Source of the DNA: an uncultured Gammaproteobacteria bacterium
Lineage (GTDB): Bacteria; Patescibacteriota; Patescibacteriia; SG8-24
Reading direction: 5' to 3'
Length of the DNA stretch: 64,000 nt
Assembly (NCBI GenBank): GCA_964491475.1
Contig: CAZBFO010000002.1
Span: 144,501-208,500 of the forward strand
The notes under the pieces are model-generated. The model was not told the origin of the DNA. It searched no databases and was given only the letters and a program-made list of their open reading frames with translations. Position numbers and translations under genes: made by a program. Below, one piece after another: positions 1,900 through 19,258 of the stretch (position 1 is its first letter; each line of letters opens with the position of its first letter).

Positions 1900-4752
1900 G
1901 TGGTATGCTGTACGCGTGGCTATCCCGCAACGTACACGCGCATGTGGGCATCTTTACTGGTCGGAATCTCCGGCCTTCGCAAGCGACTTTTCGCCAGGCA
2001 TGACGATTCGCCGTCGTTGATCACCCGACGTGGACTTGTTGTCGTCGTCTTTTTGGTCGTCTTCGGAACGTTGTTCGTTTCGCATCCCTCCGTGCTCGCC
2101 GACAACACCTCCAACGGCGTCACGGAAGGCATCGGCAACGCCATCGCCACGGCCGTCGGCTTCATCATCGACCTGATGCTTGGCTTGGTGGGCCAGCTGC
2201 TGCTGATCATGATCGGCGCGCTGATCTGGGTGGCGCAATACAACGGGTTCGTGACGGCCGTGCCGGTGGCCCAAGGCTGGACCATCGTCCGCGACGTCAC
2301 CAACATGTTCTTTATCGTCATCATGCTGATTTACGCCTTCGGTACCATCCTCGGCGTAGATGCCTACAGCGCCAAGGGCGGCGCCATCGTCAAGCTGCTG
2401 ATCATGGCCGTCGTGGTCAACTTCTCGCGCACCATCTGCGGACTGCTCATCGATGCCAGCCAGGTGGTCATGCTGACGTTCGTCTACGGCTTCAAGGAAG
2501 CGGCCGGCGGCAACTTCGCCGACGCCCTCGGCATCACCAAGCTGATGCAGCTGAAAAACGAAGGAACCGTCTCCGCCTGGTCCGTGACGGTGTCCCTGAT
2601 GTTGGCACTGCTCATGACCTCCGTTTCGCTGATGGTCGTCGTGGTCATGACCATCTGCCTGGCGGTGCGCATCGTCATCCTCTGGCTGCTGATCGTCATG
2701 TCGCCGTTGGCTTTCCTGACGCGAACCGCGCCAGGAAGCTTTGCCAAAGGAAAGTATGCCGACTGGTGGAAGAAGTTCACCGCGCAGCTGGTCTTCGGTC
2801 CGGTAATGGCGTTCTTCCTGTGGTTGGCGCTGGTGAGCGTCGGTTCCTCCGAGTTTTCCGGCCAAGGGTTTCCTCCGATGAACTCGGGCGTAGGCAACGT
2901 CGGTACGGTCAACTCGAACGCTTCCGAGGCGTTCGGCGACATTCAGATCCAAAAGTTCATCATCGCCATCTGCCTGCTGTTCGGCGGCCTGCAAATGGCC
3001 AAGGAGGTGGCCGACAACATGTCCGTTTTGAGTCAGGCAAAGGACAAGGTCAAGGGCGCGTACTCGGCCGCCAAGGGCGTCTATGACCGCGGGAAGACCG
3101 TCGCCAAAGGCACGGCCAAGGTCGCCGGCGTCGCCGGATCCGCAGGCATCGGCCTGGTGGACATCGCCAGCGGAGGCAGGGGCACCAAGGCCAAGAACTG
3201 GGCGCTTACGCAAGCGGCAAAAGTTCCGCTTATCGGCGGCGCCGCAGAAGCAAAACTTAGTCGTGACAAGGCCGCGAACGAGGAGGTCGCGAAGAAGGCC
3301 GCAGGAAGGGCGTCCAAGGCCAGCGAGGAGCTGGTCAAGTCGCGCGCCAACGAGAAGCTGTCCGCCGTCACCATGGACGGCCAGATCGAGCGCAACGAGT
3401 TCCAGAAGAAGCGCGTGCAGGATCTCGCCAAGAAGTCCAAGAAGAAGCAGCTGACCCAAGAGGAACGGCAGGAATACTTCCGATTGGCCAAGAGCATCAA
3501 GAAACACGGTGACAAGTTCGATGACGACTCCGGCGACAAGGTGCTGGAGGGAATAGAGAAGAGGAACCCGTCGCTCATCGTCGACGAGAACGAGAAAGAC
3601 CCTGCCGAGAGGAAACGTCAGGCTGAAGCATTCGTGAAATCGGCGCGGTCCCTCAACAAGCAGGACTTGGCCGACATGGACCCGGATGCCCTCAAGGGCA
3701 ATGCCCAGCTGCAGGCGTTCCTGTCGCCCAAGCAGGTGCTGGAAGCGCAAAAGATCGCCACCGGCGACAACCTCGAGGCTCTCGAGAGAATGGGTTCCAA
3801 CGAGAGCGAAATCAAGGCTTATCAGGAGGGTTTGCGCAACCGCGCCGACGTCTTCGCCTTCAACTCCGAGCAAGACCGCGCGGCCCGCGTCTCCGGAATG
3901 TCCGAAGATCAGCTCAAGGAGCTGGCGGGCAATCCGGGAGTCGGTGCCGAGGCCTTCGGAGGTTCGGTGCTTCAGGCGGCCGTCGCTGCCGGTACTGCGG
4001 GGGCGCTTGCCGACAAGCTCGCGCCGACGCTCTCGGCCCAGACGCTGGAAGACAACGACGCACTCGCCGATCAGATCGCCAGGGGCATCAGCGCCAGCTC
4101 GCTGGCGAGCCTGTCAAAGGATGTCGGCGACGTGCTCCGCGAACGCGTCGCGGAAACCGATCCGGCAAAGGCGATGGCCGGAGGAGCCAAAATGGAACAG
4201 GTCTTCGGCGGCTACGGCGGAGACGGCAGCTTCGATACGGTCGAGAATCGCGCCGCATTCGAGAAGTACCTGCAGGACGGACTTACGGACAAACGCGCCG
4301 GCTCGATTCCGGCCGATGCCATCGCCAGGAACGGCGGCATCAACGACGTCTCCATCTCGATGATCAAGAACCTTGAAGTGAGCGACCTGCAGAAGATGGC
4401 CAAGGACGGCAAGACCGGTCAGGTATCGGAACTGCTGTCCGCCATGGAGAAGTTCTCCAAGGTCGACACCAGCGATCAGGCGGCGGTCGATAAGTTCATC
4501 GTTGAGAATGCCGGCGTCACGGTGAACGAGCAGGAACTGCGCGCGGTCATGACCAAGGCGGCCCAGACTCTGGCCGACTCCGCCGGCGCCAACAGCCCCA
4601 TCCGCGCGGCCCAGCAGGAAAAGGCCACGATGCGCGCGGTCGAGGCTGCCGCCCGCAAGGCGGCCGAAGCGGAAAACCGGCGTCAGGCTTTCGAGCGGAA
4701 GCTTCTAGGCAGGATACCCAAGCGCGACCGACGCACCAGCAGGAATAAATAG
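1900..4752 (+). CDS. VirB6/TrbL-like polytopic T4SS membrane protein with long C-terminal hydrophilic extension
   Basis: The N-terminal ~300 aa contain 6-7 predicted TM helices (GLVVVVFLVVFGTLFV, IIDLMLGLVGQLLLIMIGALIWV, MFFIVIMLIYAFGTILG, LLIMAVVVNF, LMLALLMTSVSLMVVVVMTICLAVRIVILWLLIVMSPLAF, VFGPVMAFFLWLALV). The following ~650 aa are Ala/Lys/Glu-rich and low-complexity, as in ConG/TcpH/PrgH-type VirB6 homologues. It is the first gene of an operon that contains VirB3 and VirB4. Start codon is uncertain (GTG 1900 or ATG 1942). Confidence 0.55.
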   Translation: MVCCTRGYPATYTRMWASLLVGISGLRKRLFARHDDSPSLITRRGLVVVVFLVVFGTLFVSHPSVLADNTSNGVTEGIGNAIATAVGFIIDLMLGLVGQLLLIMIGALIWVAQYNGFVTAVPVAQGWTIVRDVTNMFFIVIMLIYAFGTILGVDAYSAKGGAIVKLLIMAVVVNFSRTICGLLIDASQVVMLTFVYGFKEAAGGNFADALGITKLMQLKNEGTVSAWSVTVSLMLALLMTSVSLMVVVVMTICLAVRIVILWLLIVMSPLAFLTRTAPGSFAKGKYADWWKKFTAQLVFGPVMAFFLWLALVSVGSSEFSGQGFPPMNSGVGNVGTVNSNASEAFGDIQIQKFIIAICLLFGGLQMAKEVADNMSVLSQAKDKVKGAYSAAKGVYDRGKTVAKGTAKVAGVAGSAGIGLVDIASGGRGTKAKNWALTQAAKVPLIGGAAEAKLSRDKAANEEVAKKAAGRASKASEELVKSRANEKLSAVTMDGQIERNEFQKKRVQDLAKKSKKKQLTQEERQEYFRLAKSIKKHGDKFDDDSGDKVLEGIEKRNPSLIVDENEKDPAERKRQAEAFVKSARSLNKQDLADMDPDALKGNAQLQAFLSPKQVLEAQKIATGDNLEALERMGSNESEIKAYQEGLRNRADVFAFNSEQDRAARVSGMSEDQLKELAGNPGVGAEAFGGSVLQAAVAAGTAGALADKLAPTLSAQTLEDNDALADQIARGISASSLASLSKDVGDVLRERVAETDPAKAMAGGAKMEQVFGGYGGDGSFDTVENRAAFEKYLQDGLTDKRAGSIPADAIARNGGINDVSISMIKNLEVSDLQKMAKDGKTGQVSELLSAMEKFSKVDTSDQAAVDKFIVENAGVTVNEQELRAVMTKAAQTLADSAGANSPIRAAQQEKATMRAVEAAARKAAEAENRRQAFERKLLGRIPKRDRRTSRNK
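1901..1909 (+). promoter_or_regulatory. candidate extended -10 element (TGgTATGCT) upstream of the T4SS operon
   Basis: TGGTATGCT matches the TGnTAnnnT extended -10 consensus. It overlaps the GTG at 1900 that the ORF track uses as the start. The true start of the VirB6-like gene may therefore be downstream, for example ATG 1942. Confidence 0.25.
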
Positions 4753-4760
4753 CACTTCCT

Positions 4761-6062
4761 ATGGAAGAGGCGCAACAGGCGACAACTGAAACGGCGGCCG
4801 AGGCTCCCGCTAAATCGCCAGAAGGGCAGGTCATCGCGCCGGTCGCAGAGAACGACGATGCGGGCGGCGGACCCGAAGTCGGCGTTTTGGTGCGCATCAA
4901 AAGCCTGCCCCAGGCGGTCTTCGATTATCTGATGTCAGACGACCTGGTGAAGCTGCATCAGACCGTCTATGACCAGCACGGCCTCAAGCCCGAGGAGCGC
5001 GATGCCGTCTATTACGCCGAACTGCAGACGTTCCTCGGCGAGCTCGGCCTCAAGGAATTTCCGGGGGAATTGTGGAGCCGCCTCGGTTGGGAAGAATCGC
5101 GCGACGAGCAGGTCATCGCCTTGGCCGTGGACGTGCTCGGTTTCGTCTTCTTGCCGGCGCAGGCGCATCTCGGAGACGTTGCCGGCGTCATCGCCGAGCT
5201 CGGCGGGGACATCAAGGCGTTTCCCGAAAAGCAGCTTGAGGTACGCAGGATCACTTACGCGCAGGGATCGGCGGAAATCGCCGAAGTGGCCGATTTGGGC
5301 GAAGAGGACGACGGCACTATGCGCAAGCGCCTGGCGTTCATCATCGAGTCGCGGTTGCGCCACGTGCGCACCAACGTCGCCGTAAAGGAGATGCTGATGC
5401 GCGGCAAGAAGACCGGCGGCATGGACCTTTCGGAGCAGGAAGCCGACAAGATCATCGAACTCCTGGAGTCGAAGACCCGCATGACCTCGTACGCCGACGT
5501 CCTCGGAGAAGAGCCTGCCGCGGCTGCCGGGGGAGAAGAGCCGGAATATGCCGCAGAGGACATCAAGAGGATTTTTGCAGGTACTGCCGAAGAACAGGAG
5601 GCGCTCGGGAAGCGCATAGGACGTTTCGCCTCGGTCACTGCCGGCGACCCGTCCAAGATGCGCGACGCCTTTTACCAGGTGATCGCGCCTGCCGACGGCA
5701 GTCCCATCGATCCGCCGTACGTCGTCGCCGGACTCATTTCGATGGCTGACGGCGACAAGATTTCCGACGCTTTGGCCGAAGACGAGCGCTATCGCACGTT
5801 CGTCCGCGAATACCTCAAGGGAAAAAAACGCGACGCCGAAGCAGAGGCCTTCGATGCAGATCCGACCGATGCCAAGTACATGAACATCCTGCTGCAGTAC
5901 CTCTTGCGGGGCATCGCAGGCTACGACGATGCCGATTCCGCCCGCCTCGGGCTGCACGTCATCAACCTGCTCAACAAGCAGGGGTACAATCGCTACGCCG
6001 AGCTGGTGGCCTTCGACATGAAAGAAGGCGAATTCCGATGGAAAGACCTTGTTGAACCATAG
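4761..6062 (+). CDS. hypothetical acidic protein (T4SS operon member)
   Basis: 433-aa acidic ORF, 9 nt after the VirB6-like gene and in the same operon. No recognisable motif. Confidence 0.5.
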   Translation: MEEAQQATTETAAEAPAKSPEGQVIAPVAENDDAGGGPEVGVLVRIKSLPQAVFDYLMSDDLVKLHQTVYDQHGLKPEERDAVYYAELQTFLGELGLKEFPGELWSRLGWEESRDEQVIALAVDVLGFVFLPAQAHLGDVAGVIAELGGDIKAFPEKQLEVRRITYAQGSAEIAEVADLGEEDDGTMRKRLAFIIESRLRHVRTNVAVKEMLMRGKKTGGMDLSEQEADKIIELLESKTRMTSYADVLGEEPAAAAGGEEPEYAAEDIKRIFAGTAEEQEALGKRIGRFASVTAGDPSKMRDAFYQVIAPADGSPIDPPYVVAGLISMADGDKISDALAEDERYRTFVREYLKGKKRDAEAEAFDADPTDAKYMNILLQYLLRGIAGYDDADSARLGLHVINLLNKQGYNRYAELVAFDMKEGEFRWKDLVEP

Positions 6063-6077
6063 CTGAACGAGTCCCGT

Positions 6078-7376
6078 ATGGCCGATACCACCTCCCTTCC
6101 CGGTTCCGACGCAACGTCGGACGCAGCCAAAAAAGCGCCTTCGAACGACGGGGGATTGACCAAGGAGTCTTGGCTCGACCTGTCCGACGCCTCCATTCCC
6201 GTGATCGACCCGCAGGGCAAACAGGTGGTCCTGAAAGGGGCCGGCTTTGTCGATCCTGCTCCTGCGCCAGTCCCGGCGGTTCCCGCTGCCTCGCAGCCGG
6301 CTGTCGCCAAGGCGGCACCCCCTCCTCCGAACCTTCCTTTGGTGGAAGAAAAACCGATTACGGCCGAGCCGGTCGGCGCGCAACCTGTCACCTCGCTGGC
6401 CGATCTCGGACTCGACGACGCCGCGGACGTCGCCGAAATCAAGAAGATCGAACAGAAGACGGCGGTGAAGTCCGTGGACGCTTCCGTAAAGAAGGACTTG
6501 CCGCTGCTGGAGTCGATGGTCGAGGATGCCGTCAACGGCACGGACGCCAACGTCACCGACGTCAGCATGCGCCGCCGTTTCAGCCTTCTCATTTCGCTCT
6601 TCTTCCGCGACTTGCGCGACGGCCTGGAAACGAAGTCCAAGTTCACCATGCCGGTACAGAGCGGGGGGATGGGCTTCGACGACGCTACCGCCGATCGGGT
6701 GCTGGAAGAGCTGGTAAGGCGCAACAAGTCGTACAAGGAGGCGCTCACCGGCAAGGCGGCAGACGACAAGTCGCAATACGTCGCCAAGCGCACCGAGACC
6801 GTCCTCAACCTGCAGGAGAACATCGACCGCGCCGAGCAGGAACGCGGCGACAAGGCGTTCGAGGGCCTGATGCAGCGCGTCGGCACGCGTGCCGAGGAGC
6901 AGCCGGCGCCGCGGCCCGCAGAACCAAGGTCGATTCCGGTCATCGGTCTCGACAAGAAACCGACGCCTTCGGCCGCGCCGCAAGTCGTCGGCACCGCCGG
7001 GATCGGCTCCGTCAACCGTCCCACCGTCTCGGATGTCGCCTATGCGCCGAAGCTCACCGGGCCGGTGGAAGAGCTTCGCCAGCTGACCCTCAAGGACTTC
7101 CGCCGCCTTTCCCGCGACCCCAAGGAGGCTACGCTCAAGATCAAGGACAAGATCGACCTTCTCGAGGAGCAGTCTTTCGAAGTGAAAACCGCTGGCGTCA
7201 GCGCCTGGCACGATTGCGAGGTGAACCGGCTGTACTTGGAAATCCTCCGGCAAAGCTTGGACGGAAAACCGATCATGGACGTGATAGCCGATCTCGACCA
7301 GAAGGCATTGCCTGCGCTCACCAAAGACGAATTCGACGTGATCATGCAGTTGAATCAAAAATTGCGCTTTGGTTAG
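6078..7376 (+). CDS. hypothetical protein with Pro/Ala-rich low-complexity N-half (T4SS operon member)
   Basis: 432-aa ORF with a PAPAPVPAVPAASQPAVAKAAPPPP tract and a C-terminal globular region. Tightly spaced in the operon. Confidence 0.5.
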   Translation: MADTTSLPGSDATSDAAKKAPSNDGGLTKESWLDLSDASIPVIDPQGKQVVLKGAGFVDPAPAPVPAVPAASQPAVAKAAPPPPNLPLVEEKPITAEPVGAQPVTSLADLGLDDAADVAEIKKIEQKTAVKSVDASVKKDLPLLESMVEDAVNGTDANVTDVSMRRRFSLLISLFFRDLRDGLETKSKFTMPVQSGGMGFDDATADRVLEELVRRNKSYKEALTGKAADDKSQYVAKRTETVLNLQENIDRAEQERGDKAFEGLMQRVGTRAEEQPAPRPAEPRSIPVIGLDKKPTPSAAPQVVGTAGIGSVNRPTVSDVAYAPKLTGPVEELRQLTLKDFRRLSRDPKEATLKIKDKIDLLEEQSFEVKTAGVSAWHDCEVNRLYLEILRQSLDGKPIMDVIADLDQKALPALTKDEFDVIMQLNQKLRFG

Positions 7377-7433
7377 CGAAATAAAGTGTGGAAAGGTGCA
7401 CGGCCTTAGGTGTGCTATAGTGTAAGCAGCGAT

Positions 7434-7859
7434 ATGCGATACGTGGTACCGCAGTTCATCGACGTGGAAGACAAAATTCTCGGCCCGCTGACGGTCCGGC
7501 AGTTTTTGATCCTGCTCGCCACCGCGCTGGTCATGTTCGTCGAGTACAAGCTGTCCGACTTCGGGCTGTTTCTCGCGGTGAGCATTCCCTCGTTCGCCAT
7601 CGGCGGCACCTTCGCCTTTTTCCGGGTGAACGGCCAGCCGTTCCACTTCTTCCTGCTGAACCTGCTGCAGACGTTCCGTCGTCCGCCTCTCCGGAGCTGG
7701 GACAAGGAACAGTCCGACGCCGAACTGCTGGACATCATCCGCAAGCCGCCGCCGCCCGCGCCGCCGGCCCGCATTCGCAAGGAGGCGCTGGCCAGCACCA
7801 AGCTGACGGAGCTTTCCCTGGTCGTCAACACGGGCGGCGTCTACAATCCCGACGCATAA
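7434..7859 (+). CDS. VirB3/PrgI-like small membrane protein
   Basis: About 140 aa. The N-terminus reads FIDVEDKILGPLTVRQF followed by two hydrophobic helices (LILLATALVMFVEY, LFLAVSIPSFAIGGTFAFF). It lies immediately upstream of VirB4, the canonical VirB3-VirB4 synteny. An alternative GTG start lies at 7410. Confidence 0.55.
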   Translation: MRYVVPQFIDVEDKILGPLTVRQFLILLATALVMFVEYKLSDFGLFLAVSIPSFAIGGTFAFFRVNGQPFHFFLLNLLQTFRRPPLRSWDKEQSDAELLDIIRKPPPPAPPARIRKEALASTKLTELSLVVNTGGVYNPDA

Positions 7860-7877
7860 GACACGTACTCCACGCAC

Positions 7878-8591
7878 ATGGCGCAGGAACAAGAGATGCA
7901 ATCAAGGAAGTTGGCCGGCGGCAAGCCGGGTCCCGCGACCCAGCGATTCTTGGATATCGCCGAAGTCAAGGAGGACGTGATGGTCATGAAGGACGGCACC
8001 ATGCGCGTGGTGCTGATCGTTGCCAGCATCAACTTCGCGCTCAAGTCCGAGGACGAGCAGAACGCCATCATCTCCGCCTACGTGCAGTTCCTCAATGCGC
8101 TGGAGTTCCCGCTGCAGGTGGTGATTCAGTCGCGCCGCCTGAACATCGACAAGTACATCGAGCGCCTCAAGGAGTCGGAAAAGAACCAGACCAACGAGCT
8201 GCTCCGCATGCAGATCAAGGACTACCGCAACTTCGTGCAGGAACTGGTCACGCTCGGCCAGATCATGCAGAAGCAGTTCTTCGTGGTCGTCCCGTACAAC
8301 CCGTTGTCCGACAAGCGCAAGGGCTTTTTCTCGCGCCTGTCCGAGGCTTTTTCGCCGACGCTGTCCGTCCGCCTGGCAGAGGACCGTTTCCGCCAGCGCA
8401 AGAACGACCTGCAGACCCGCGTCGACCACATCATCAGCAACTTGGGCAGCATGGGCCTCAAGGCCGTCCAGCTCGACACGCAGAGCCTGATCGAGCTGTT
8501 CTACCGCGTCTACAATCCGGAAACCTACGACACGCAGAAGATGCAGGACTCTTCCAAGCTCCGCGTCACCGATGAAATCACGACCGTCTAA
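7878..8591 (+). CDS. VirB4 N-terminal domain encoded as a separate ORF (split VirB4)
   Basis: MVMKDGTMRVVLIVASINFALKSEDEQNAIISAYVQFLNALEFPLQVVIQ matches the N-terminal KDG...(L/I)N(F/Y)...SEEEQ...F...LN module of Gram-positive VirB4s (ConE/TcpF/PrgJ type). It ends 5 nt before the ATPase ORF, which lies in the -1 frame. Confidence 0.5.
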   Translation: MAQEQEMQSRKLAGGKPGPATQRFLDIAEVKEDVMVMKDGTMRVVLIVASINFALKSEDEQNAIISAYVQFLNALEFPLQVVIQSRRLNIDKYIERLKESEKNQTNELLRMQIKDYRNFVQELVTLGQIMQKQFFVVVPYNPLSDKRKGFFSRLSEAFSPTLSVRLAEDRFRQRKNDLQTRVDHIISNLGSMGLKAVQLDTQSLIELFYRVYNPETYDTQKMQDSSKLRVTDEITTV

Positions 8592-8596
8592 CGCCT

Positions 8597-10507
8597 ATGG
8601 CATTCACCCCCGGACAATTCGCTCCCGGCACCGGTCCGACGCCGCAACAGCAGCGGAAGGCGGCTGCGGCGCCGACGAAGAAGGCGCAGGAATCCGAGCA
8701 GATCGCCAAGGAGAGGGAAGTGCTCGAAGAGGAGCGCATCTACCGCCGCGGCGTCATCTCCATCAAGGACGTCATCGCGCCGGCCGGCATGAAGATCGAG
8801 CCGACGTACCTGGTGCTCAACGAGACCTTCGTTCGCACCATCTTCGTCGTGACTTATCCGCGTTACATCTCTCTGGGATGGTTTGCTCCCATCGTGAACA
8901 TGAACCACCCGCTCGACGTGGCGATGTTCTTCTATCCGGTGAAGCCGGAAGTCATTCTCAAGCAGCTCAAGAAGAAGGTCGGTACGCTCGAAGCGCAGAT
9001 CATGTCGGACTCGGAGAAAGGCGCGCCCCGCGACCCCATCCGCGAAACCGCCCTCCGCGACATCGAAGAATTGCGTGACTCGCTTTCGCAGGGAACCGAG
9101 CACTTTTTCCAGTTCGCGCTCTACGTCACCGTCTACGCCAAGGACAAGAAGGAGCTCGACAAGCAGACCGAGGACGTCGAAGCGCTCTTCGGCGGCAAGC
9201 TCATCTATACCAAGCGCGTCTTCTATCAGTCGGAGCAAGGCTTCAACTCGACCATGCCGCAGGGCAACGACGAGCTGATGATCACCTTCAACATGAACTC
9301 GTCGCCGGTGGCGTCGTCGTTCCCGTTCATCTCGGCCGACCTGACCACCGACAACGGCATCCTTTTCGGCGTCAACCGCCACAACAACAGCCTGGTCCTG
9401 TTCGACCGCTTCTCGATGCAGAATGCCAACTACATCGTGTTCGCCACTTCCGGCGCAGGCAAGTCGTACTGCGTCAAGCTCGAGATTCTGCGATCGCTGA
9501 TGGTCGGCACCGAGGTCATCGTCATCGACCCGGAAATGGAATACAAGCACCTGTCCGACGCGGTCGGCGGCACCTACATCAACCTGTCGCTGGCTTCCGA
9601 CGCCAAGATCAACCCGTTCGACTTGCCGCGCGCGGTCGGCGAGCAGATCACCACCGAGGACATCATCCGCAGCGCCGTCATCACCGTGAAGGGCCTTTTG
9701 CGCATCATGTTGGGCGGCAACGTCTCGCCGCAGGACGACTCCACCCTCGACCGCGCCCTGCTCGAAACCTACGCCAAGAAAGACATCACCCCCGACGCCG
9801 ACCTGGCCAAAGTGGAACCGCCGATCATGCAGGACTTCGTGGAAGTGCTCGAGGGCATGGAAGGCACCAAGGACATCGTCATCCGCCTCAAGAAGTTCAC
9901 CGAGGGCACCTTCGCCGGCCTGTTCAACTCGCCGACGACCATCACCATGCGCAACGTGCTGGTGACCTTCTCGGTCCGCGACCTCGAGGACGAACTGCGC
10001 CCGCTGGCCATCTACGCCATCGTCAACTACATCTGGAACGTCGTCCGCTCGGAGCGCAAGAAGCGCATCCTGGTCATCGACGAAGCCTGGTGGCTCATGC
10101 AGAACGAGGACTCCGCCAAGTTCATCTTCGCGCTGGTCAAGCGCTGCCGCAAATACTACCTGGGCGTCACCACCATCACGCAGGACGTCAACGACTTCCT
10201 CCGCAGCCCTTATGGCCAGGCCATCGTCACCAACTCGGCCATGCAGATGCTGCTCAAGCAGTCGCCGGCGGCCGTCGACAACATTGCCAAGACCTTCCTG
10301 CTGACGGAAGGGGAGAAGTTCCTGCTCTTGGAGTGCGGCGTCGGCGAAGGCATCTTCTTCGCCGGCAACAAGCATGCGGCCATCAAGGTCGTGGCCTCGT
10401 ACGCCGAAGACCAGGTCGTGACCACGAACCCGCAGCAGCTGCTCGAGATCGAGCAGGCCAAGAAGGATTTCCAGAAGGCCCAGGAAGAGGAGGCCAACAA
10501 GAAGTAG
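8597..10507 (+). CDS. virB4: VirB4/TrbE/CagE-family T4SS ATPase
   Basis: Middle-domain signature TYLVLNETFVRTIFVVTYPRYISLGWFAPIV. Walker A is FATSGAGKSY and Walker B/DEAW box is RILVIDEAWWLM. The C-terminal region reads TTITQDVNDF. Confidence 0.85.
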   Translation: MAFTPGQFAPGTGPTPQQQRKAAAAPTKKAQESEQIAKEREVLEEERIYRRGVISIKDVIAPAGMKIEPTYLVLNETFVRTIFVVTYPRYISLGWFAPIVNMNHPLDVAMFFYPVKPEVILKQLKKKVGTLEAQIMSDSEKGAPRDPIRETALRDIEELRDSLSQGTEHFFQFALYVTVYAKDKKELDKQTEDVEALFGGKLIYTKRVFYQSEQGFNSTMPQGNDELMITFNMNSSPVASSFPFISADLTTDNGILFGVNRHNNSLVLFDRFSMQNANYIVFATSGAGKSYCVKLEILRSLMVGTEVIVIDPEMEYKHLSDAVGGTYINLSLASDAKINPFDLPRAVGEQITTEDIIRSAVITVKGLLRIMLGGNVSPQDDSTLDRALLETYAKKDITPDADLAKVEPPIMQDFVEVLEGMEGTKDIVIRLKKFTEGTFAGLFNSPTTITMRNVLVTFSVRDLEDELRPLAIYAIVNYIWNVVRSERKKRILVIDEAWWLMQNEDSAKFIFALVKRCRKYYLGVTTITQDVNDFLRSPYGQAIVTNSAMQMLLKQSPAAVDNIAKTFLLTEGEKFLLLECGVGEGIFFAGNKHAAIKVVASYAEDQVVTTNPQQLLEIEQAKKDFQKAQEEEANKK

Positions 10508-10510
10508 CCT

Positions 10511-11131
10511 ATGCAGCGCCGCACCAAGATCATCATCGCCGTCATCGTCCTCGTCTTGCTCGCGCTGATCGCGATGCTGTTCCTGCTGAAGCCTCCGGCG
10601 GCCGCTCCGGCCCCCAAGCCGACGCCCGCGCCTGCGGCCAACGTCAACGTGAACAGGCCGACGACGCAGAACACCAACAACCGGCCCGCAGGTAACGTCA
10701 ACGTCGCGGTCAGCACCAACGCGCCGCCACCCGCGCCGGCCGACGACAAGACCGGTCTCAAGAACACCGCGCGTTCGTTTGCCGAGCTGTTCGGCAGCTC
10801 CTCGACCGAAGGCAATTATCAGAACATCGTCGACGCCGAGTACTACATGACGGCCTCGGTTAAGGCCTGGGCGGAACAGTACGTCGCCGAGCAACGCGCC
10901 AAGCCGAAGACCGGCGAGTTTTCCGGCACTACCACCCGTGCCATCTTCGAACCTGACGTGCTGGCGTATGACAAGGACGCAGGCACGGCGACGGTCGTGG
11001 TGAAGACCCGCCGCATCGAGACCGGCGCCACCATCGGCGCGCAGAACGTGTACTACCAGGACCTGACCCTGAACTTCGTGAAGGCGGGGGAGGCCTGGAA
11101 GGTGAACCGCTTCACTTGGGGAGACAAGTAA
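10511..11131 (+). CDS. membrane-anchored protein with Pro-rich linker and about 120-aa C-terminal domain (VirB8-like candidate)
   Basis: N-terminal TM helix (IIIAVIVLVLLALIAMLFLL), then a PAAAPAPKPTPAPA linker, then a globular domain ending EAWKVNRFTWGD. Its position directly after VirB4, together with this architecture, fits VirB8/ConB-like bitopic components. No sequence-level proof. Confidence 0.4.
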   Translation: MQRRTKIIIAVIVLVLLALIAMLFLLKPPAAAPAPKPTPAPAANVNVNRPTTQNTNNRPAGNVNVAVSTNAPPPAPADDKTGLKNTARSFAELFGSSSTEGNYQNIVDAEYYMTASVKAWAEQYVAEQRAKPKTGEFSGTTTRAIFEPDVLAYDKDAGTATVVVKTRRIETGATIGAQNVYYQDLTLNFVKAGEAWKVNRFTWGDK

Positions 11132-11150
11132 AAGGAAATCTGCACGTGAG

Positions 11151-11177
11151 GCGAGCCCGCGAGGCTCGCTTTCGGTT
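11151..11177 (+). terminator. weak hairpin/attenuator between T4SS operon and comFC
   Basis: gcgagcc-cgcga-ggctcgc followed by tttcggtt. Confidence 0.3.
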
Positions 11178-11210
11178 CTCCGCCAGCCGATTTGCGCCGC
11201 TTCGTCCGAC

Positions 11211-11918
11211 GTGGTAAGCGGACCCCGTATGCCGATGCCTTCGCTTCGGGTCGCCGCCGAACTGGCCTGCAGGGTCGTCTTTCCGCACTTTTGCGTGGGC
11301 TGCAAAGAGGAAGGGCAGGTGCTTTGCGCTGACTGCGATCTGGAGTTGCGCGTCTTGGGGAGCGGCAGCTTCGGCTTACCGCCGAAGGGAGACGGCCGCT
11401 ATGCCATCGACTCCCTTGCCAGCGCGCTGCCGTACGCGGAGCCGGTGCCGCGCACCTTGCTGCAACAGTACAAGTACGAGCGCGTAGAGGAGGCTGGCGC
11501 GGCGGTCGTCGAGGCGTTCGGACGTTTCGTGCGATGGAACGAAGAACGTTTCTGCGCCATGGCCGAAGGCGCGGTCGTGCTGCCAGTGCCCATGCATCCG
11601 TGGAAGCAGGCGTGGCGCGGCTTCAATCAGGCCGAGACGCTTGCCGCCGTCTTTGCCGTAAACACCGGCTCGCGAGCGGCGAGAGGCGTCCTTTGCCGGC
11701 GCTTCGGACTGAAGGCGCAGGCCCAACTGCGGGATCGCGACATGCGAAGCGCCAACGCCTCGGGAAGCGTGCGGGTCGCGCGAAAGTTTCCCGCCGGAAC
11801 CCGCTTCATTTTGGTCGACGACGTCTTTACGACGGGAGCGACGCTTGACGCCTGCGCGGACGCGCTCAAGCGCGCCGGAGCCGGGGAGGTCCATGCCGTC
11901 ACGTTCCTGAAAGGATAA
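11211..11918 (+). CDS. comFC: ComF-family competence protein (ComFC, phosphoribosyltransferase domain)
   Basis: N-terminal zinc-finger cysteines (CVGCKEEGQVLCADCDLEL). The C-terminal PRTase motif is FILVDDVFTTGATLDACADALKRAGA. Confidence 0.8.
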   Translation: MVSGPRMPMPSLRVAAELACRVVFPHFCVGCKEEGQVLCADCDLELRVLGSGSFGLPPKGDGRYAIDSLASALPYAEPVPRTLLQQYKYERVEEAGAAVVEAFGRFVRWNEERFCAMAEGAVVLPVPMHPWKQAWRGFNQAETLAAVFAVNTGSRAARGVLCRRFGLKAQAQLRDRDMRSANASGSVRVARKFPAGTRFILVDDVFTTGATLDACADALKRAGAGEVHAVTFLKG

Positions 11919-11958
11919 AAAAAGCGAGCCGGACACTTGCGTGCCGCGCTCGCGGAAG

Positions 11959-12438
11959 TCATTGGCGGTATTCCTGCAGCACCTTGACGAAGGGATACTT
12001 CTTGGCGCTGTAGCCGTAGCCGCGGAGAAGATCTCTGGTACCGCGGTACTCCTCGTCGTAGCCCCAGTTGAAGGAGACCCGATTGGCCCACCAGTAATAG
12101 TAGAACCCTTCGGTGGTCACGAACTCCCTGTACTCGGTCGGAACGAACTGCACCAGTTTGCAGTCGTAGCCCCGTCCGGCCGAAGTGACGCAGACGCGCA
12201 TCGGGCGGGTGTCGACCTTGGCGACCTCCACCCATGGGGCCGAGACGTTCCAGCCGGGCGTGTCGAGCTTGATCTCGCCGCTGAACACGTCGCGCATGAT
12301 GCCGACGTGCCCGTAGTCGGTGTAATGGACGAAGGCCAGCCAAAACAGGGTGATGACTGACATCGTCGTGACGGCTGCGATCCGGCGCGGCGTTCCGACG
12401 AGACGTTTCGCGGCCTTGAGCGCCGACGTCCGGTTCAT
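11959..12438 (-). CDS. small membrane-anchored protein, paralogue A
   Basis: MNRTSALK start. TM helix VTTMSVITLFWLAFV, then a beta-rich domain with RPMRVCVTSAGRGYDCKLVQFVP. It is a paralogue of the upstream gene. The ATGA start/stop overlap indicates translational coupling. Confidence 0.5.
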   Translation of the reverse strand: MNRTSALKAAKRLVGTPRRIAAVTTMSVITLFWLAFVHYTDYGHVGIMRDVFSGEIKLDTPGWNVSAPWVEVAKVDTRPMRVCVTSAGRGYDCKLVQFVPTEYREFVTTEGFYYYWWANRVSFNWGYDEEYRGTRDLLRGYGYSAKKYPFVKVLQEYRQ

Positions 12439-12926
12439 TTCCGCGTGTCGTCCGCGCCGTTTTCCGGCTTCAGCTCGCGGATCACGGTCATGAAGGGATA
12501 CTCCTTGCCAGAGCCGTCGAAGGCGTAGCTGGTGAGTATCTGGGTGAGGTTGCCTCCGTACGCGTGGCCGTTGCTGTCGACGGATGAACCGCCTTTGTAA
12601 TCGCCGTTGCCGTGCCAGCTGAGGAACGTGTCGAGCCCTTGCGGGTTGAACTTCACAAGCTTGCAGTTGAGCACGCGCGAGTTGGCGTTGATGCACACCT
12701 GCATCGGGCGGAGGTCGACCGTGTAGACCTTCACCAGGATGGGCGACGTCACCACGTAACCCGGGTGAGTCAGCACGGTCACCCGTCCGGTTCTGGAGTC
12801 GAACACGTAGCCGAGCTCGTAGTTCTCGACGTGGTTGACCCAGCCGATCCGGAAGACGAGAAGTCCGAAAAGTCCGAGGAGGAACGTTCCCAGCAGGGCC
12901 GCGCCTGCCTTTTCCAATCGGTTCAT
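12435..12926 (-). CDS. small membrane-anchored protein, paralogue B
   Basis: TM helix ALLGTFLLGLFGLLVF, then a domain with RPMQVCINANSRVLNCKLVKFNP. It shares the RPM(Q/R)VC...CKLV(K/Q)F core with paralogue A. Confidence 0.55.
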   Translation of the reverse strand: MNRLEKAGAALLGTFLLGLFGLLVFRIGWVNHVENYELGYVFDSRTGRVTVLTHPGYVVTSPILVKVYTVDLRPMQVCINANSRVLNCKLVKFNPQGLDTFLSWHGNGDYKGGSSVDSNGHAYGGNLTQILTSYAFDGSGKEYPFMTVIRELKPENGADDTRK

Positions 12927-13054
12927 GTTTTGCCTTTTTTTGTCCTGCAGAACGCCGCAGTTTCTTGCGGCCGAAATGAGCGTATGCTCGCTGTTTCCTT
13001 AGCAGAGGCACGGGCCATTGTCAATCAGCGCCGCTTTGCTACAATCGGCTGACC

Positions 13055-13558
13055 ATGCATAAAAACGTCAAGCAGTTCTTTTTGGACGCGCGGCCCATTC
13101 TCGACGCGCTGGACCAGTGGGCCGGGGCCTACGGGCCTGCCGTGGTCGCCGACCACGTCTGCTACAAGTGCGGCAGCCGTCAGGAGTTCGAGGCGCTCCG
13201 CCGCCTTTTCGAGGACGAGAGCGCTTACGTCTACCAGTCGATCATTTCCGGCCGGCGGATCGCCGTCATCAAGTTCAGGCGTCCCCTCAAGACGCTGCTC
13301 GGCGACATCTGGTTCCTGGAGCTTTCCGACCAGAAGCCCGACGGCAGCCAGGAGAGCGGCTTCGATCACGTCGAGGCCTACCCGGTCGCCGGAACCGTCG
13401 AAGAGACGGTCAACGTGCTGCGGGCAAAAGGTTTCGGCTTTGATCGGACCGTCCGCCCGCATCACACCACCTACGACGCCGCGCTCGGCAAGGCGTACAA
13501 GATACGCCTGGAACCGGAGCGGCTGGTCCAGAAGATCAAGAACGACGAAATGCACTGA
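13055..13558 (+). CDS. YecM-like VOC-superfamily protein
   Basis: ADHVCYKCGSRQEFEALRRLFE...ISGRRIAVIKF...FLELSDQKPDGSQESGFDHVEAY parallels E. coli YecM (ADHISLRC...RRGFE...INGRPICLFKL...ELPWP...EGWEHIEI). Confidence 0.55.
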   Translation: MHKNVKQFFLDARPILDALDQWAGAYGPAVVADHVCYKCGSRQEFEALRRLFEDESAYVYQSIISGRRIAVIKFRRPLKTLLGDIWFLELSDQKPDGSQESGFDHVEAYPVAGTVEETVNVLRAKGFGFDRTVRPHHTTYDAALGKAYKIRLEPERLVQKIKNDEMH

Positions 13559-13562
13559 CACG

Positions 13563-13586
13563 CACGGCCTTCGGGCCGTGTTTTTT
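13563..13586 (+). terminator. rho-independent terminator
   Basis: cacggcc-ttcg-ggccgtg followed by tttttt. Confidence 0.75.
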
Positions 13587-13590
13587 GCAT

Positions 13591-13619
13591 GAAAAAGCGA
13601 AGCCCGTGCAGGGCTTCGC
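13591..13619 (-). terminator. rho-independent terminator for the minus-strand gene
   Basis: On the minus strand this reads gcgaagccc-tgcac-gggcttcgc followed by ttttt. Confidence 0.65.
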
Positions 13620-13623
13620 GCAT

Positions 13624-14205
13624 TCAGGTCTTGGCGAAGAAGTGGTGGTCGAGCTCGGGGCCCCAACGGCACTGCTGGCTTAGTTTCCCGGATTCCGGTT
13701 CGCTCACGGGCGGTACGAACGGTTTTCGTTCGCTCCAGGCCGCTTGCACCGTGGCGCCGATGTGGCCGTTGTAAGTGGCACCGTTCGCGCTGCTTGCGGA
13801 GATGACGCCGACTTCGGGGAAGGCGTCGTCCTGTCCGCAAAGCGCGGCGGCGAGGGCTGCCGCGTGGCAGCAGTCGTTGACGACGAGCGTCGGACCTTTC
13901 CGGCACAGGCCCAAAGCGTCGACGAGCCTGGCATACGGCAGCTCCAGCCAGGTGTCGGCGTCATGCTTGCCGTACGCCCAACCGTCCTCGGAGCCGTGTC
14001 CGATGTAGACGATCAGCAGCGGTTGCCGTCCCGCCAGGTAGCCCTGGTTGGCAATCAGGCCCAAGAGAAGGGAATCCGTCTTGTTCCAGGCGGATATCTG
14101 CTTCACCAGCTTGATGCCGGCGCGCACGTGGAGAAAGTATTCGAACGATTGCGCCTCTTCATGCGCCTGCAGTTCGTGACCCACGACGATGACTGCTCGT
14201 GACAT
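13624..14205 (-). CDS. clan CD (caspase/legumain-like) cysteine peptidase-domain protein
   Basis: An ordered His-Gly ... Asp-x-Cys pair (LLIVYIGHGSEDGW and TLVVNDCCHAAALAA) sits after a small beta-alpha core. This is typical of the C13/C14 catalytic dyad. There is no signal peptide. Confidence 0.4.
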   Translation of the reverse strand: MSRAVIVVGHELQAHEEAQSFEYFLHVRAGIKLVKQISAWNKTDSLLLGLIANQGYLAGRQPLLIVYIGHGSEDGWAYGKHDADTWLELPYARLVDALGLCRKGPTLVVNDCCHAAALAAALCGQDDAFPEVGVISASSANGATYNGHIGATVQAAWSERKPFVPPVSEPESGKLSQQCRWGPELDHHFFAKT

Positions 14206-14294
14206 GCGTTACTCCTCGTTGCCATATGTAGCCCAAAAAGGCGTTTCAGTCAATACGCAAGGATCTCACGCGATGGCGCGAGGTCCGTGCCCGT

Positions 14295-14546
14295 TTAACG
14301 ATGTTTGCACCCGACCCAGCAGCACGGCCGGCGCCTGCCCTCGATGATTTCCGTCCAAGTCCTTTTGATTCGGTGCGCCCGCGTTTCTTCTTTTTTGGCG
14401 TCCTCGATCCAGCAGATGAATTCGTTGCGGGCGAGGGGAGTGATGTCCTCCCAGGCGGCCCTTGCTTTCGGAGATGCCAAGAGCGCCTCCCGCAGGTCCG
14501 GGGGGAGCTTGTGGACGACGCCTGCGGAGATTCTTTGCGTCTGCAT
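14295..14546 (-). CDS. YdeI/OmdA-domain protein
   Basis: PPDLREALLASPKARAAWEDITPLARNEFICWIEDAKKEETRAHRI matches the YdeI/OmpD-associated (DUF1801-like) C-terminal motif. Confidence 0.55.
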   Translation of the reverse strand: MQTQRISAGVVHKLPPDLREALLASPKARAAWEDITPLARNEFICWIEDAKKEETRAHRIKRTWTEIIEGRRRPCCWVGCKHR

Positions 14547-14577
14547 ACCTGCGTCAGCTTCGCCAAGGTCGCCGCGA

Positions 14578-15660
14578 TTATTTTTTTATGAACTTGATGC
14601 CGAATTTTTTCGTCAGCGCCTGCTGCACGCTGTCGTTGTCCGGATTCCTGTCCGGTCCGACGAATTCGGCGAGGGCTTTCTTCTGCAGGCCGATGACCGC
14701 GGTGCACATTTCCTGATACTCCATGGTTTCCAGTCGGCCTCGCAGGTTTTCGGCTTCCTCCGTGATGGCTCCGTTGCCGACCAGTTCCGCCAGCAGCTTC
14801 GCCGTCGCGACCATGTCTTCCGCCGCGCGCGGATTCCGGCTCTTTTGCTGCATGAACGTCTTGGCGTTTTCCTGAACGACCCTGCTCATGTCCGAAACGA
14901 CGTTCGTCTGCCTGTCGATGACGATGGCACGCAGCTCGCCGGGCATGATGACGTTGGCGCCGAGAACTTCATCCTGATATGCCGTCGGATTACCCACCTT
15001 GTATTCTTCTCCCACGACCTGGCTCTTTATGCCGTGGCCGTAGCCGGTCGTAGGGTCCCTCTCGGCGTCGGTCGCGCCGAACGTCTTGATGTCAGGATTG
15101 ATCAGGTACATGACGTTGCCGGGCGGGGTGAACGTCTGTTCCGCGTATTTCGAAAGGGAGATGCTGTCGGCCTCCTGATAGCTGCCGCCCTGTTTAGTAC
15201 GCAGGCCGTTCATCTGTCGTGCCAATTTCTCGGCATCGGGATGGTCCTTACGCAGGGCATCGAACCTGTTTTTGAAGTTGTTGCTCTGTATGCCGAAACG
15301 GAGAATCTGAAAAACGTTGCCCGCCTTCGAGTAGTGCATCAGCGGCTGCTCGCGCTTGGCATCTTCCAGCGAATACTCCGGGCGCTCGGCGTTCGTCTTT
15401 TTCAGCTCCTCGAGCGCCTGCCTCGTGGTGGTGATTTCGGGCGCGGCAGGTCCCATCTCGAGCTGCTCTCGCAGCGCAGACACCTTTTCCTGCTCGTCGA
15501 CGAACCTGTCGACACGTTCGAGCATCAATCTGCGCGCTTCCCGGTATTCTTCCGTGGTTTTCGCCCGATGCAAAATCTCGCGCCGCTTTTCCTTGTCGGG
15601 CTCATTCCTGACGTCTTTCGCGAGTTCGTCGCGGTAGTGCCGCGATTCGGATTCGTTCAT
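14578..15660 (-). CDS. hypothetical protein (360 aa) in lower-GC islet
   Basis: Long ORF with coherent codon usage and no recognisable motif. GC is visibly lower than the surrounding sequence. Confidence 0.45.
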   Translation of the reverse strand: MNESESRHYRDELAKDVRNEPDKEKRREILHRAKTTEEYREARRLMLERVDRFVDEQEKVSALREQLEMGPAAPEITTTRQALEELKKTNAERPEYSLEDAKREQPLMHYSKAGNVFQILRFGIQSNNFKNRFDALRKDHPDAEKLARQMNGLRTKQGGSYQEADSISLSKYAEQTFTPPGNVMYLINPDIKTFGATDAERDPTTGYGHGIKSQVVGEEYKVGNPTAYQDEVLGANVIMPGELRAIVIDRQTNVVSDMSRVVQENAKTFMQQKSRNPRAAEDMVATAKLLAELVGNGAITEEAENLRGRLETMEYQEMCTAVIGLQKKALAEFVGPDRNPDNDSVQQALTKKFGIKFIKK

Positions 15661-15743
15661 AACCGGCGCTGTGAGGTAGTTCAGTATCCCAGACTGCTGT
15701 ACATGTTAGGGCTTTTTCAGGAAGTCCCCGAAATTTTCCGTTC

Positions 15744-16184
15744 TTATTGTGCAGGCGCAGCATCTTTTGGGTCAAACTCCACCGTCCATTCGATGCCGTA
15801 CTTGTCCCTGAACATGGCAAATGAGGTGCCCCAAGGGCTTTCATCCAATGGCATTTCAACGGTGCCTCCTTCCGAAAGACCCCTGAAGAGCTTATCGGCT
15901 TCTTCCTTCGTTTCGGCGATGATCGCTATCTTGGACCTGTTTTCGTTCTCGTTCACTCGCCCCATGCTTTCCGGAACGTCATTGGCAATCAAGACGTTTT
16001 TGCCGATAGGCAAGGCGATGCGCATGATCTTATTCGCCTCGTTCTCCGGTACCTGAAATTCGGGGCTTGAGAGGTCCTTGAAACGAAGGATCTTGGTAAA
16101 CTCTCCGCCAAATACCGATTTGTAGAAAGTAAATGCCTCTTCGGCATTTCCATTGAAGTTGATGTAGGGATTGATCGTTGCCAT
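15744..16184 (-). CDS. VOC-family protein (PhnB-like, 3-demethylubiquinone-9 3-methyltransferase-domain type)
   Basis: MATINPYINFNGNAEEAFTFYKSVFGGEF at the N-terminus, and WGTSFAMFRDKYGIEW near the C-terminus, are typical of PhnB-like VOC proteins. Confidence 0.7.
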   Translation of the reverse strand: MATINPYINFNGNAEEAFTFYKSVFGGEFTKILRFKDLSSPEFQVPENEANKIMRIALPIGKNVLIANDVPESMGRVNENENRSKIAIIAETKEEADKLFRGLSEGGTVEMPLDESPWGTSFAMFRDKYGIEWTVEFDPKDAAPAQ

Positions 16185-16313
16185 AGCGGGTTGCGGTTTC
16201 TGCCATTATCTACAAAGAAAATCCTAACTATTTCGACATTCCGGCGTTCGCTCGAAAGGTTTACTGATTGGCCGCCGTACTCCGTTACAGTCCGCCGTAT
16301 ATCGCACGGCGGA

Positions 16314-17141: not shown

Positions 17142-17244
17142 TGGCCCGCTACCCTAAAAATCATCAGATTTATTACTAAATTTGCTGGCGGTGTACGCGA
17201 GTTCAGTACCCTGTATGTACGGACAATGCGTCCAGGTTGACGCG

Positions 17245-17781
17245 TCAGATGTCTAAAGCGTAGACAGCTTCGTGCTCCACGTCGGCGACGGAGCTGCGGT
17301 CGTGCAGCAGATGCAGCATCCGGATGATCCCGCTGTGCGTCACGACGAGCGGCTTCTTCCAGCGGCCGCCACGCAGGCTGTCGACGAACCGCGTCAGCCG
17401 TTCCTGCACCTGCGCCGCCGATTCGCCCCCGAACTCCCGATAGTCAAACAGCTGCGCTCGGTCCTTTTCACGGATGTCCGGGCCGAGTTTGGCCTTCACG
17501 TCCTCCCACGTCAGCCCCTCCAAGGTCCCGAAATGTCGCTCACGAATGTCTTCATCTTGCACGAGCGGGAGGTTGAGCTGCTCTCGAAAGATCTCCGCCG
17601 TCTGGCACGCTCTTTTCAGCGGCGAACTCACGATGACGTCAAATGTCTCCCTGGATAGTTTGGCGAGCAGCGTCCGGGATTCGGCGATACCATCTTCGTT
17701 CAACACCGGATCGGACCACCCCGAAATCCGCTTATCGCGACCCCAGTCGGTTTTGCCGTGTCGCACGAGGACGATGCGCAT
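17245..17781 (-). CDS. histidine phosphatase family protein (phosphoglycerate mutase-like)
   Basis: RHG catalytic motif (IVLVRHGKTDW) and C-terminal VVTHSGIIR. Confidence 0.85.
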   Translation of the reverse strand: MRIVLVRHGKTDWGRDKRISGWSDPVLNEDGIAESRTLLAKLSRETFDVIVSSPLKRACQTAEIFREQLNLPLVQDEDIRERHFGTLEGLTWEDVKAKLGPDIREKDRAQLFDYREFGGESAAQVQERLTRFVDSLRGGRWKKPLVVTHSGIIRMLHLLHDRSSVADVEHEAVYALDI

Positions 17782-17865
17782 ATGTGCGAAGGGTTATCAA
17801 TGGAAACCTTCATCGGCCTGACCCCGCACCCGAATGCACGCGAGTCGCACGATAAGAACTTGTCG

Positions 17866-18147: not shown

Positions 18148-18150
18148 GAA

Positions 18151-19253: not shown

Positions 19254-19258
19254 CTTTC

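Follow-up and report, generated by a model that had tools for sequence, protein, structure and literature searches.

What does a type IV secretion system (T4SS) do for its owner when its operon ends in a competence gene and no coupling protein or relaxase is encoded nearby? This question is raised by an eight-gene cluster in a 64,000-nucleotide stretch of DNA (the window hereafter; GenBank assembly GCA_964491475.1, contig CAZBFO010000002.1, positions 144,501 to 208,500 of the forward strand), in which an earlier note, made from the sequence alone, had recognized a minimal Gram-positive-style T4SS operon ending in ComFC. The analysis presented here upholds that operon, the open reading frames (ORFs) of which lie where they had been placed and are supported by profile searches and structural models. 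It identifies the locus, with hardly any doubt, as an example of the T4SS of the Patescibacteria clade that was already described between 2023 and 2025, in the arrangement found in the class ABY1. With respect to its function, import of DNA in conjunction with ComFC, RadA and RecG is our leading guess, at a likelihood somewhat short of even.

The T4SS cluster (1942-11918, + strand) consists of eight co-directional genes, all with intact ORFs, in the following order from 5' to 3':

1942-4752, + strand: predicted extended VirB6/TrbL-like polytopic membrane protein, 936 aa (from topology and homologues matching PF04610)
4761-6062, + strand: acidic protein 1, 433 aa, isoelectric point (pI) 4.6
6078-7376, + strand: acidic protein 2, 432 aa, pI 5.0
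7434-7859, + strand: VirB3 homologue of the PrgI family, 141 aa (PF12666, 37.4 bits, gathering cut-off 27)
7878-8591, + strand: TrsD-like protein, the VirB4 N-terminal domain as a gene of its own (profile matches)
8597-10507, + strand: VirB4 ATPase, apparently of the monoderm (MPF_FATA-like) type (NF045971 conju_CD1110)
10511-11131, + strand: VirB8-like bitopic protein, 206 aa (predicted structure)
11211-11918, + strand: ComFC-type competence protein, last gene of the cluster (profile matches and cysteine motif)

The GC content at third codon positions of the eight ORFs is coding-like (0.75-0.90, versus approximately 0.61 overall; GC content of the window approximately 61%), and the GC content of the operon is that of the flanking DNA in the window. 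Intergenic gaps measure 3-57 nt, except that the VirB8-like gene is followed by 79 nt or more before comF starts; the range of 4-34 nt given by the earlier note is corrected accordingly. Similarly, the starts that had been assigned to the VirB6-like gene (1900) and the prgI gene (7410) are likely to be 1942 and 7434, yielding proteins of 936 aa and 141 aa, respectively. These positions were taken from gene calls on an identical metagenomic Logan contig (L082), and the latter is also backed by the closest relative (L001).

A genome collection was scanned with VirB4, which detected at least 456 relatives, and 80 loci were kept; the gene counts given below were derived from these loci, wherever they held enough flanking sequence. 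The kept loci originate from metagenome-assembled genomes titled Candidatus Uhrbacteria, Magasanikbacteria, Falkowbacteria, Parcubacteria or Patescibacteria, in agreement with the suggestion that the host is an organism with a reduced genome. Uhrbacteria and Magasanikbacteria belong to the class ABY1 (PMC12577380), and the host is, judged from its sequence relatives, a class-ABY1 (Uhrbacteria-like) patescibacterium. The VirB4 of the window is 69-94% identical to those of the kept loci, with a median identity of 73% as compared with approximately 30-36% for the accessory proteins, and the order of the eight genes is kept across the relatives. Moreover, VirB4 identity tracks taxonomy, and chromosomal synteny is conserved in the 80 species-level genomes. 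The system is chromosomal, vertically inherited, and derived from monoderm MPF_FATA-type conjugation machinery.

The eight ORFs were scanned with hidden Markov models (HMMs) from Pfam and NCBIfam, and four of them were identified directly, confirming the VirB3/PrgI-like protein, the split VirB4 and ComFC that had been proposed. The PrgI protein contains two transmembrane helices (residues 23-45 and 51-71), and its gene was found in all 54 loci that extend far enough upstream. The TrsD-like protein matches PF11130 (TraC_F_IV, 28.2 bits, cut-off 28.1), NF045975 (VirB4_plasma, 1.4e-12, model positions 107-233 of 894) and NF041427 (TrsD, 4e-5). The VirB4 ATPase, with intact Walker A (SGAGKS) and Walker B/DEAW (LVIDEAWW) motifs in its translation, passes NF045971 (conju_CD1110, 330.8 bits, cut-off 325, model positions 178-730 of 752) and matches P-loop_TraG (5.8e-25). 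Its score of 330.8 bits with conju_CD1110 and of 271 bits with the VirB4 model of Mycoplasma integrative and conjugative elements (ICEs) lies far above those obtained with TraC-F (196 bits) and VirB4_CagE (126 bits), which suggests a monoderm (MPF_FATA) affinity. Since the TrsD-like protein and the ATPase cover successive parts of the conju_CD1110 model (positions 14-105 and 178-730, respectively), together they represent one split VirB4, as is also the case in plasmid pGO1, where VirB4 is divided into TrsD and TrsE. The split is ancestral, and the TrsD-like gene is separate from virB4 in 78 of 80 loci. In five loci of one sub-lineage (L050, L057, L060, L062 and L079), 1-8 kb with several unrelated ORFs is found between the two, which implies that the two VirB4 halves are truly independent genes.

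Two further components were recognized by other means. The 936-aa protein displays a hydropathy profile with approximately seven to eight transmembrane segments within residues 37-371, followed by a hydrophilic tail of approximately 580 aa that is rich in K, A and E. The proposed VirB6 identity stands in so far as the protein is polytopic and its homologues match PF04610; the window protein itself did not match any model in Pfam or NCBIfam. Forty-four homologues were found, and among the 27 that were aligned (28-48% identical) five match TrbL/VirB6 PF04610 (best 3.5e-9). By transitivity via these homologues the protein is accepted here as a putative 'extended VirB6', the gene for which is present in 50 of the 54 loci with enough upstream sequence. 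The 206-aa protein did not match any model in the Pfam and NCBIfam scans either, and in this respect its proposed relationship to VirB8 gained no support; its predicted fold and architecture are nevertheless those of VirB8. It is composed of an N-terminal transmembrane helix, a disordered linker rich in P, A and N, and a C-terminal NTF2-like domain that was modeled by AlphaFold with a pLDDT mostly above 90. In structure comparisons of this domain, VirB8 structures outrank generic enzymes with an NTF2 fold, and the Gram-positive proteins PrgL, TraM and TraH are also listed among the matches. The structural model thus confirms that the protein is VirB8-like in predicted fold and architecture.

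ComFC, the product of the last gene, combines an N-terminal four-cysteine zinc finger (CxxC-x8-CxxC) with a C-terminal type-I phosphoribosyltransferase domain. It matches TIGR00201 (comF, 4.3e-19) with 69 bits, under the cut-off of 233, as well as GntX (3.5e-15), Pribosyltran (2.2e-8) and DZR_2 (0.0028). Among the 71 loci with room for comF, 65 have the gene on the same strand and at most 2.5 kb downstream of virB4, and tblastn maps show that the gap between the VirB8-like gene and comF usually measures 10-70 nt. On the basis of these loci, the terminal position of comF in the T4SS operon is conserved in ABY1. The spacer ahead of comF contains a hairpin that was considered as a possible terminator; since shuffled sequences fold equally well (z = 0.2), it speaks neither for nor against one.

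The two remaining genes, located between those for VirB6 and PrgI, encode acidic proteins that had been regarded as uncharacterized and lineage-specific, which is borne out by the absence of any match to a family or solved fold and by homologues from Patescibacteria. Both proteins lack a signal peptide as well as convincing transmembrane segments, and neither matched Pfam, NCBIfam or PDB sequences, also when family profiles were used. PDB sequence searches with single proteins and family profiles returned low-complexity or chance matches only, a Pfam scan of 40 homologues of acidic protein 1 gave isolated chance matches only, and cluster look-ups for distant family members gave just 'hypothetical protein, Patescibacteria group bacterium'. 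In a representative library of 1.84 billion proteins, 419 clusters are homologous to acidic protein 1. Of the 54 loci that reach far enough upstream, tblastn detected this protein in 28; acidic protein 2 was found in all of them. The C-terminal domain of the latter is 45-64% identical in many loci according to the tblastn maps, even where PrgI is only approximately 45-65% identical.

The two acidic proteins have a motif of approximately 60 residues in common (BLASTP 7e-6), with a consensus, over approximately 55 residues, of roughly RL..I.ES.LR.VRD..ET...L.K..K.GG..L....A, which occurs twice in longer family members of approximately 600 aa. Profile-profile comparison of the two families (hhalign) gave a probability of 99.8% (E 3.5e-30, 186 columns), and in the longer homologues of acidic protein 2 (approximately 600 aa) the N-domain of acidic protein 1 recurs at the N-terminus. 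The model of acidic protein 2 contains confident all-helical domains at approximately 140-270 and 325-432, joined by disordered Pro/Ala-rich regions, and a disordered N-terminus. A weak structural similarity to helical bundles of the PWI/Nab2 type fell below significance. By sequence comparison the two proteins appear to be paralogues that share a domain, acidic protein 1 would represent a Patescibacteria-specific T4SS-associated family, and both are predicted to be conserved, cytoplasmic components associated with the T4SS.

The operon is delimited on both sides by the following features:

2-1798, + strand: C-terminal 599 codons of a gene for a giant Cys-rich protein (ORF open at the window start)
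1810-1843, + strand: intrinsic terminator, a GC-rich stem of 12-14 bp followed by a U-run
11924-11953: terminator hairpin between comF and the convergent gene
11959-12438, - strand: convergent gene directly 3' of comF

The terminator at 1810-1843 (-22.8 kcal/mol, z = -4.39; none of 200 shuffled sequences folds equally well) parts the giant gene from the T4SS genes and is the 5' boundary of the operon, outside of which the giant gene probably falls. The product of this gene is 3254 aa long according to the gene call on L082 (1-5721 of that contig), and a Pfam scan of its visible 1906 aa gave nothing meaningful. Thirteen close loci have likewise retained the giant gene ahead of that for the VirB6-like protein.

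Further downstream in the window, two recombination genes are followed by an array of pilin genes:

25920-28055, + strand: RecG helicase (RecG_wedge 2.3e-21, RecG_dom3_C and helicase domains)
30164-31591, - strand: RadA/Sms recombination protein (Zn-ribbon, AAA_25/KaiC-like ATPase, ChlI-like C-terminus)
32481-33677, - strand: VirB2-like pilin 1, fused to a glucosaminidase-type wall hydrolase (PF18895 and PF01832)
33732-35012, - strand: VirB2-like pilin 2, with another Cys-rich C-terminal domain (PF18895, 7e-8)
35601-36767, - strand: VirB2-like pilin 3, with a third, distinct Cys-rich C-terminal domain (PF18895, 1.8e-6)
36853-37548, - strand: DsbA-like thiol-disulfide oxidoreductase (Thioredoxin_4 1.6e-22, DSBA 1.2e-10)

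Both recG and radA are part of the conserved neighborhood of the ABY1 T4SS: of 45 loci, 22 have recG no more than 10 kb downstream of virB4, 18 have radA downstream of virB4, and 15 have pilin-domain matches after radA. The three proteins of the pilin array, each of approximately 400 aa, have a signal peptide and a pilin region in common (48-54% identity over the N-terminal 170 aa; 53% between pilins 1 and 2). In pilin 1, the T4SS_pilin domain PF18895 (2.2e-9, residues 107-172) is combined with the glucosaminidase domain PF01832 (3.4e-17, residues 244-387), which is predicted to provide a VirB1-like activity. The C-terminal domain of pilin 2 did not match Pfam, and the motif-based suspicion that those of pilins 2 and 3 are SLT-like and LAS/M15-like peptidase domains was not supported by Pfam and is not claimed. 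A small Cys-rich ORF (35068-35598) lies within the array. The pilin-hydrolase fusions may fulfill the role of VirB1 or target the wall of a host cell, and the DsbA-like protein could conceivably be functionally tied to the adjoining Cys-rich pilins. Because pilin-domain proteins and a fused hydrolase are encoded there, the VirB2 and VirB1 functions that are absent from the operon appear, by sequence comparison, to be encoded approximately 20 kb away.

The interval between comF and recG (11919-25900) spans approximately 14 kb in this window, as compared with approximately 1-3 kb in many relatives (e.g., L002, L013 and L028). It contains small genes that were not assigned, genes for YecM, a histidine phosphatase, an AAT-family acyltransferase, shikimate kinase, a PG_binding_1 protein, an Amidase_2 protein and a major facilitator superfamily (MFS) transporter, and tRNA genes, including one for tRNA-Arg. 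Two low-GC islets (15700-17240 and 45160-46900; GC content 0.50 in the 16-18 kb block and 0.55-0.56 in the 44-48 kb blocks, versus approximately 0.62 elsewhere) are possibly recent acquisitions; they carry genes for a glyoxalase/VOC-family protein, a 275-aa protein and a 298-aa protein that were not assigned, and an NYN-domain protein. The first islet adjoins two divergent tRNA-Ser genes (17866-18147). Between recG and radA lies a gene (28195-30120, + strand) for a membrane protein of 641 aa that contains an SPFH/Band-7 domain; tblastn did not detect this protein in the related loci.

The gene content described above corresponds closely to a system that is known from the literature. According to Quinonero-Coronel et al. 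(2025), Patescibacteria possess a specific VirB4 clade nested in MPF_FATA; TrsD, PrgI/VirB3, VirB6 and VirB2-like pilin arrays are abundant, relaxases are almost absent, and type IV coupling proteins (T4CPs) are encoded far from virB4 (PMC12102498). The same source reports that ABY1 T4SS loci commonly include comF, recG and radA, and that VirB8 homologues are almost confined to ABY1 (PMC12102498). A review of 2025 describes the T4SSs of Patescibacteria as unique among those of monoderms (PMC12857230). The locus in the window has in common with this clade the MPF_FATA-like VirB4, a separate TrsD, PrgI/VirB3, a putative VirB6 and a VirB8-like protein, an array of VirB2-like pilins, which is unusual in monoderms, a chromosomal location with neither relaxase nor T4CP nearby, and, with the ABY1 members, comF, recG and radA in the neighborhood. 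There is no essential difference; what sets this locus apart is the presence of approximately 14 kb of lineage-specific genes between comF and recG, to which the comparison assigns the tRNAs, the two low-GC islets, the MFS transporter and shikimate kinase. The earlier note was thus right in its list of operon parts, and overlooked recG, radA, the three pilins, the kinship of the acidic proteins, and the fact that the system had been described before. The system itself is not new, and its association with comF, recG and radA in ABY1 has been reported (PMC12102498). To the extent that its text could be read, that paper does not discuss the paralogous acidic proteins or the pilin-hydrolase fusions.

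Other known systems resemble the locus less closely. The order VirB6, VirB3, VirB4, VirB8 is reminiscent of prgH-prgI-prgJ-(prgK)-prgL within the prgH-prgL region of pCF10. As compared with Gram-positive conjugative T4SSs (pCF10, and trsC-trsE of pGO1/pSK41), however, the locus is without a T4CP (PcfC/TrsK), relaxase, oriT and surface adhesin, and without a VirB1 gene in the operon. Instead, it has two acidic proteins, unrelated to those of the Gram-positive systems, between VirB6 and VirB3, as well as VirB2-like pilins, a chromosomal location and vertical inheritance. The ComB system of Helicobacter pylori is, like the present one, a T4SS that lacks relaxase, T4CP and VirB11, and that possibly works with ComFC. 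ComB possesses the outer-membrane core proteins VirB7, VirB9 and VirB10, and H. pylori comF is not located in the ComB operon. The system in the window differs in that comF is part of the T4SS operon, and in that ComB moves DNA over the outer membrane before ComEC takes part, whereas the host here is a monoderm and none of the three core proteins was found in the scanned ORFs. The analogy with ComB has already been drawn for the Patescibacteria T4SS (PMC11665869). The archaeal Ced system (CedA/CedB) offers another likeness, as it imports DNA with a VirB4/HerA-type ATPase in cells that have no outer membrane. The match of VirB4 to CedB is weak and at the level of the P-loop (3.4e-14, 52 bits, far under the cut-off of 700), a CedA-like protein was not found, and the components described here are of the bacterial MPF_FATA type.

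Scanning of ORFs throughout the 64 kb did not reveal VirD4/T4CP, VirB11, relaxase or integrase, in keeping with the reported lack of VirD4, VirB11 and relaxase; oriT-type features were not found in the 64 kb either, and VirB9 and VirB10 did not match any ORF of the window. The remainder of the window encodes housekeeping functions (PheS/T, ClpB, an HtpX-like protein, RseP, MurI, PurA, phosphomannomutase and tRNAs), and the view that the neighboring genes are not those of a plasmid or ICE holds, with PheST, ClpB, PurA, MurI and RseP in the flanks. The reading as a plasmid or ICE was rejected in view of synteny, composition and the absence of mobility genes in the 64 kb.

Import of DNA by this T4SS has been proposed before (PMC11665869; PMC12102498), and both ComB-like DNA uptake and an apparatus for episymbiosis, the two functions suggested by the earlier note, are discussed in the literature (PMC11665869; PMC12102498; PMC10633639). 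For the ABY1 system we tentatively favor import, because comF is conserved at the end of the operon and the two T4SS gene groups have two recombination genes between them. In the proposed mechanism, VirB4, TrsD, VirB3, VirB6 and VirB8 would form a translocon in the cytoplasmic membrane, and VirB4 would power the assembly of a pilin-based conduit through the monoderm envelope at the site of contact with a host bacterium, where the fused hydrolases would help to build the VirB2-like conduit. The channel would bring DNA into the ABY1 cell, where ComFC would take over the incoming single strand on the cytoplasmic side of the membrane; processing by RadA and RecG would make it available for recombination or for nucleotide salvage. 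The acidic proteins may serve as cytoplasmic adaptors that stand in for the missing coupling protein. A more specific and rather unlikely version of this scheme regards the acidic pair as an adaptor module of a new type, which takes the place of the coupling protein and passes single-stranded DNA from VirB4/VirB6 to ComFC and on to RadA/RecG, while hydrolase-bearing VirB2-like proteins would open the host wall.

Several considerations weigh against import of DNA. The VirB6 assignment appears to be transitive only, in that the window protein misses the Pfam model; comEC and comEA are not found in this window; recG and radA are general repair genes, located 14 kb from comF here; and, with a spacer of 79 nt or more ahead of comF, co-transcription of this gene with the operon is only presumed. 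A monoderm, moreover, offers no outer membrane for a first step such as that performed by ComB. Wang et al. (2023) found that a homologous gene cluster, including pilins, is essential for epibiotic growth of Candidatus Southlakia epibionticum, and that comEC, comF and dprA are needed for transformation and dispensable for growth (PMC10633639). A T4SS that is essential next to dispensable comEC, comF and dprA implies, in Saccharimonadia, a role other than ComEC-dependent DNA uptake (PMC10633639, PMC12857230). This single patescibacterium that was tested is a Saccharimonadia species and not a member of ABY1.

These findings support the main rival explanation, in which the same machine does not handle DNA; it would instead use VirB2-like pili and export of proteins (hydrolase-bearing pilins or effectors) to attach to the host, breach its wall and extract nutrients, and the position of comF, recG and radA would reflect conserved synteny devoid of a functional link. 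We consider this a serious contender, although also below an even chance and second to the import of DNA. It accords with the lack of a T4CP or relaxase among the scanned ORFs, with pilin domains that are fused to or paired with wall hydrolase-like domains next to a DsbA-like gene, and with the amidase and the peptidoglycan-binding protein also encoded in the window. Moreover, in S. epibionticum not only the T4SS and the pilins but also neighboring lysozyme and peptidase genes are essential, unlike comEC, comF and dprA, and the authors of that study favor protein export or another role (PMC10633639; PMC12102498). On the other hand, in 65 of 71 loci from several candidate phyla the VirB8-like gene is succeeded by a comF gene of equal orientation, usually after 10-70 nt, a spacing that is closer than is usual for incidental synteny. 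Furthermore, an effector or secretion signal was not identified, and exporting T4SSs that lack a T4CP usually load their substrates from the periplasm, a compartment that monoderms do not have.

Far less probable is a conjugative system for DNA export that belongs to an integrated element and has its T4CP and relaxase encoded elsewhere in the genome. VirB4 does pass the NCBIfam model for conjugal-transfer ATPases (conju_CD1110), the scan covers 64 kb of a source contig of approximately 386 kb, and VirD4-like genes are common in Patescibacteria genomes, usually far from virB4 (PMC12102498). Conjugation is contradicted by the lack of a relaxase, T4CP, integrase or oriT-type feature in the scanned 64 kb, by an operon composition equal to that of its flanks, and by chromosomal synteny that is conserved in 80 species-level genomes with VirB4 identity following taxonomy; in addition, only 109 relaxases were counted in 3,035 Patescibacteria genomes, seldom near virB4 (PMC12102498). 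A last reading sees in the locus the decaying remains of an ancestral module for conjugation that no longer functions, given that T4CP and relaxase are lacking, that VirB1 is not encoded within the operon, and that VirB4 is divided over two genes. This reading has next to no likelihood and is effectively refuted by conservation, given eight intact ORFs with coding-like third positions, intact VirB4 catalytic motifs, VirB4 conservation of 69-94% with the gene order kept in 80 loci (at least 456 relatives detected), the ancestral nature of the TrsD/VirB4 split (78 of 80 loci), and the essentiality of homologous genes in S. epibionticum (PMC10633639).

A considerable part of bacterial diversity is accounted for by Patescibacteria, and to our knowledge their T4SS is the only T4SS known to be essential for the growth of its owner. 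Within this context the locus is mainly another example of the system, which sharpens three points, i.e., the terminal position of comF, a VirB8-like protein that can be recognized by structure, and an orphan pair of acidic proteins. The interest that remains lies in these related orphan proteins, in the operonic comF and in the pilin-hydrolase fusions. Through their location inside the operon, the acidic proteins are candidates for the missing parts that handle the substrate. Should they indeed act as an adaptor module in the import of DNA, the system would constitute a third independent T4SS-type route of DNA uptake, after ComB and Ced, and would provide a nucleotide supply line for organisms that are unable to make nucleotides themselves.

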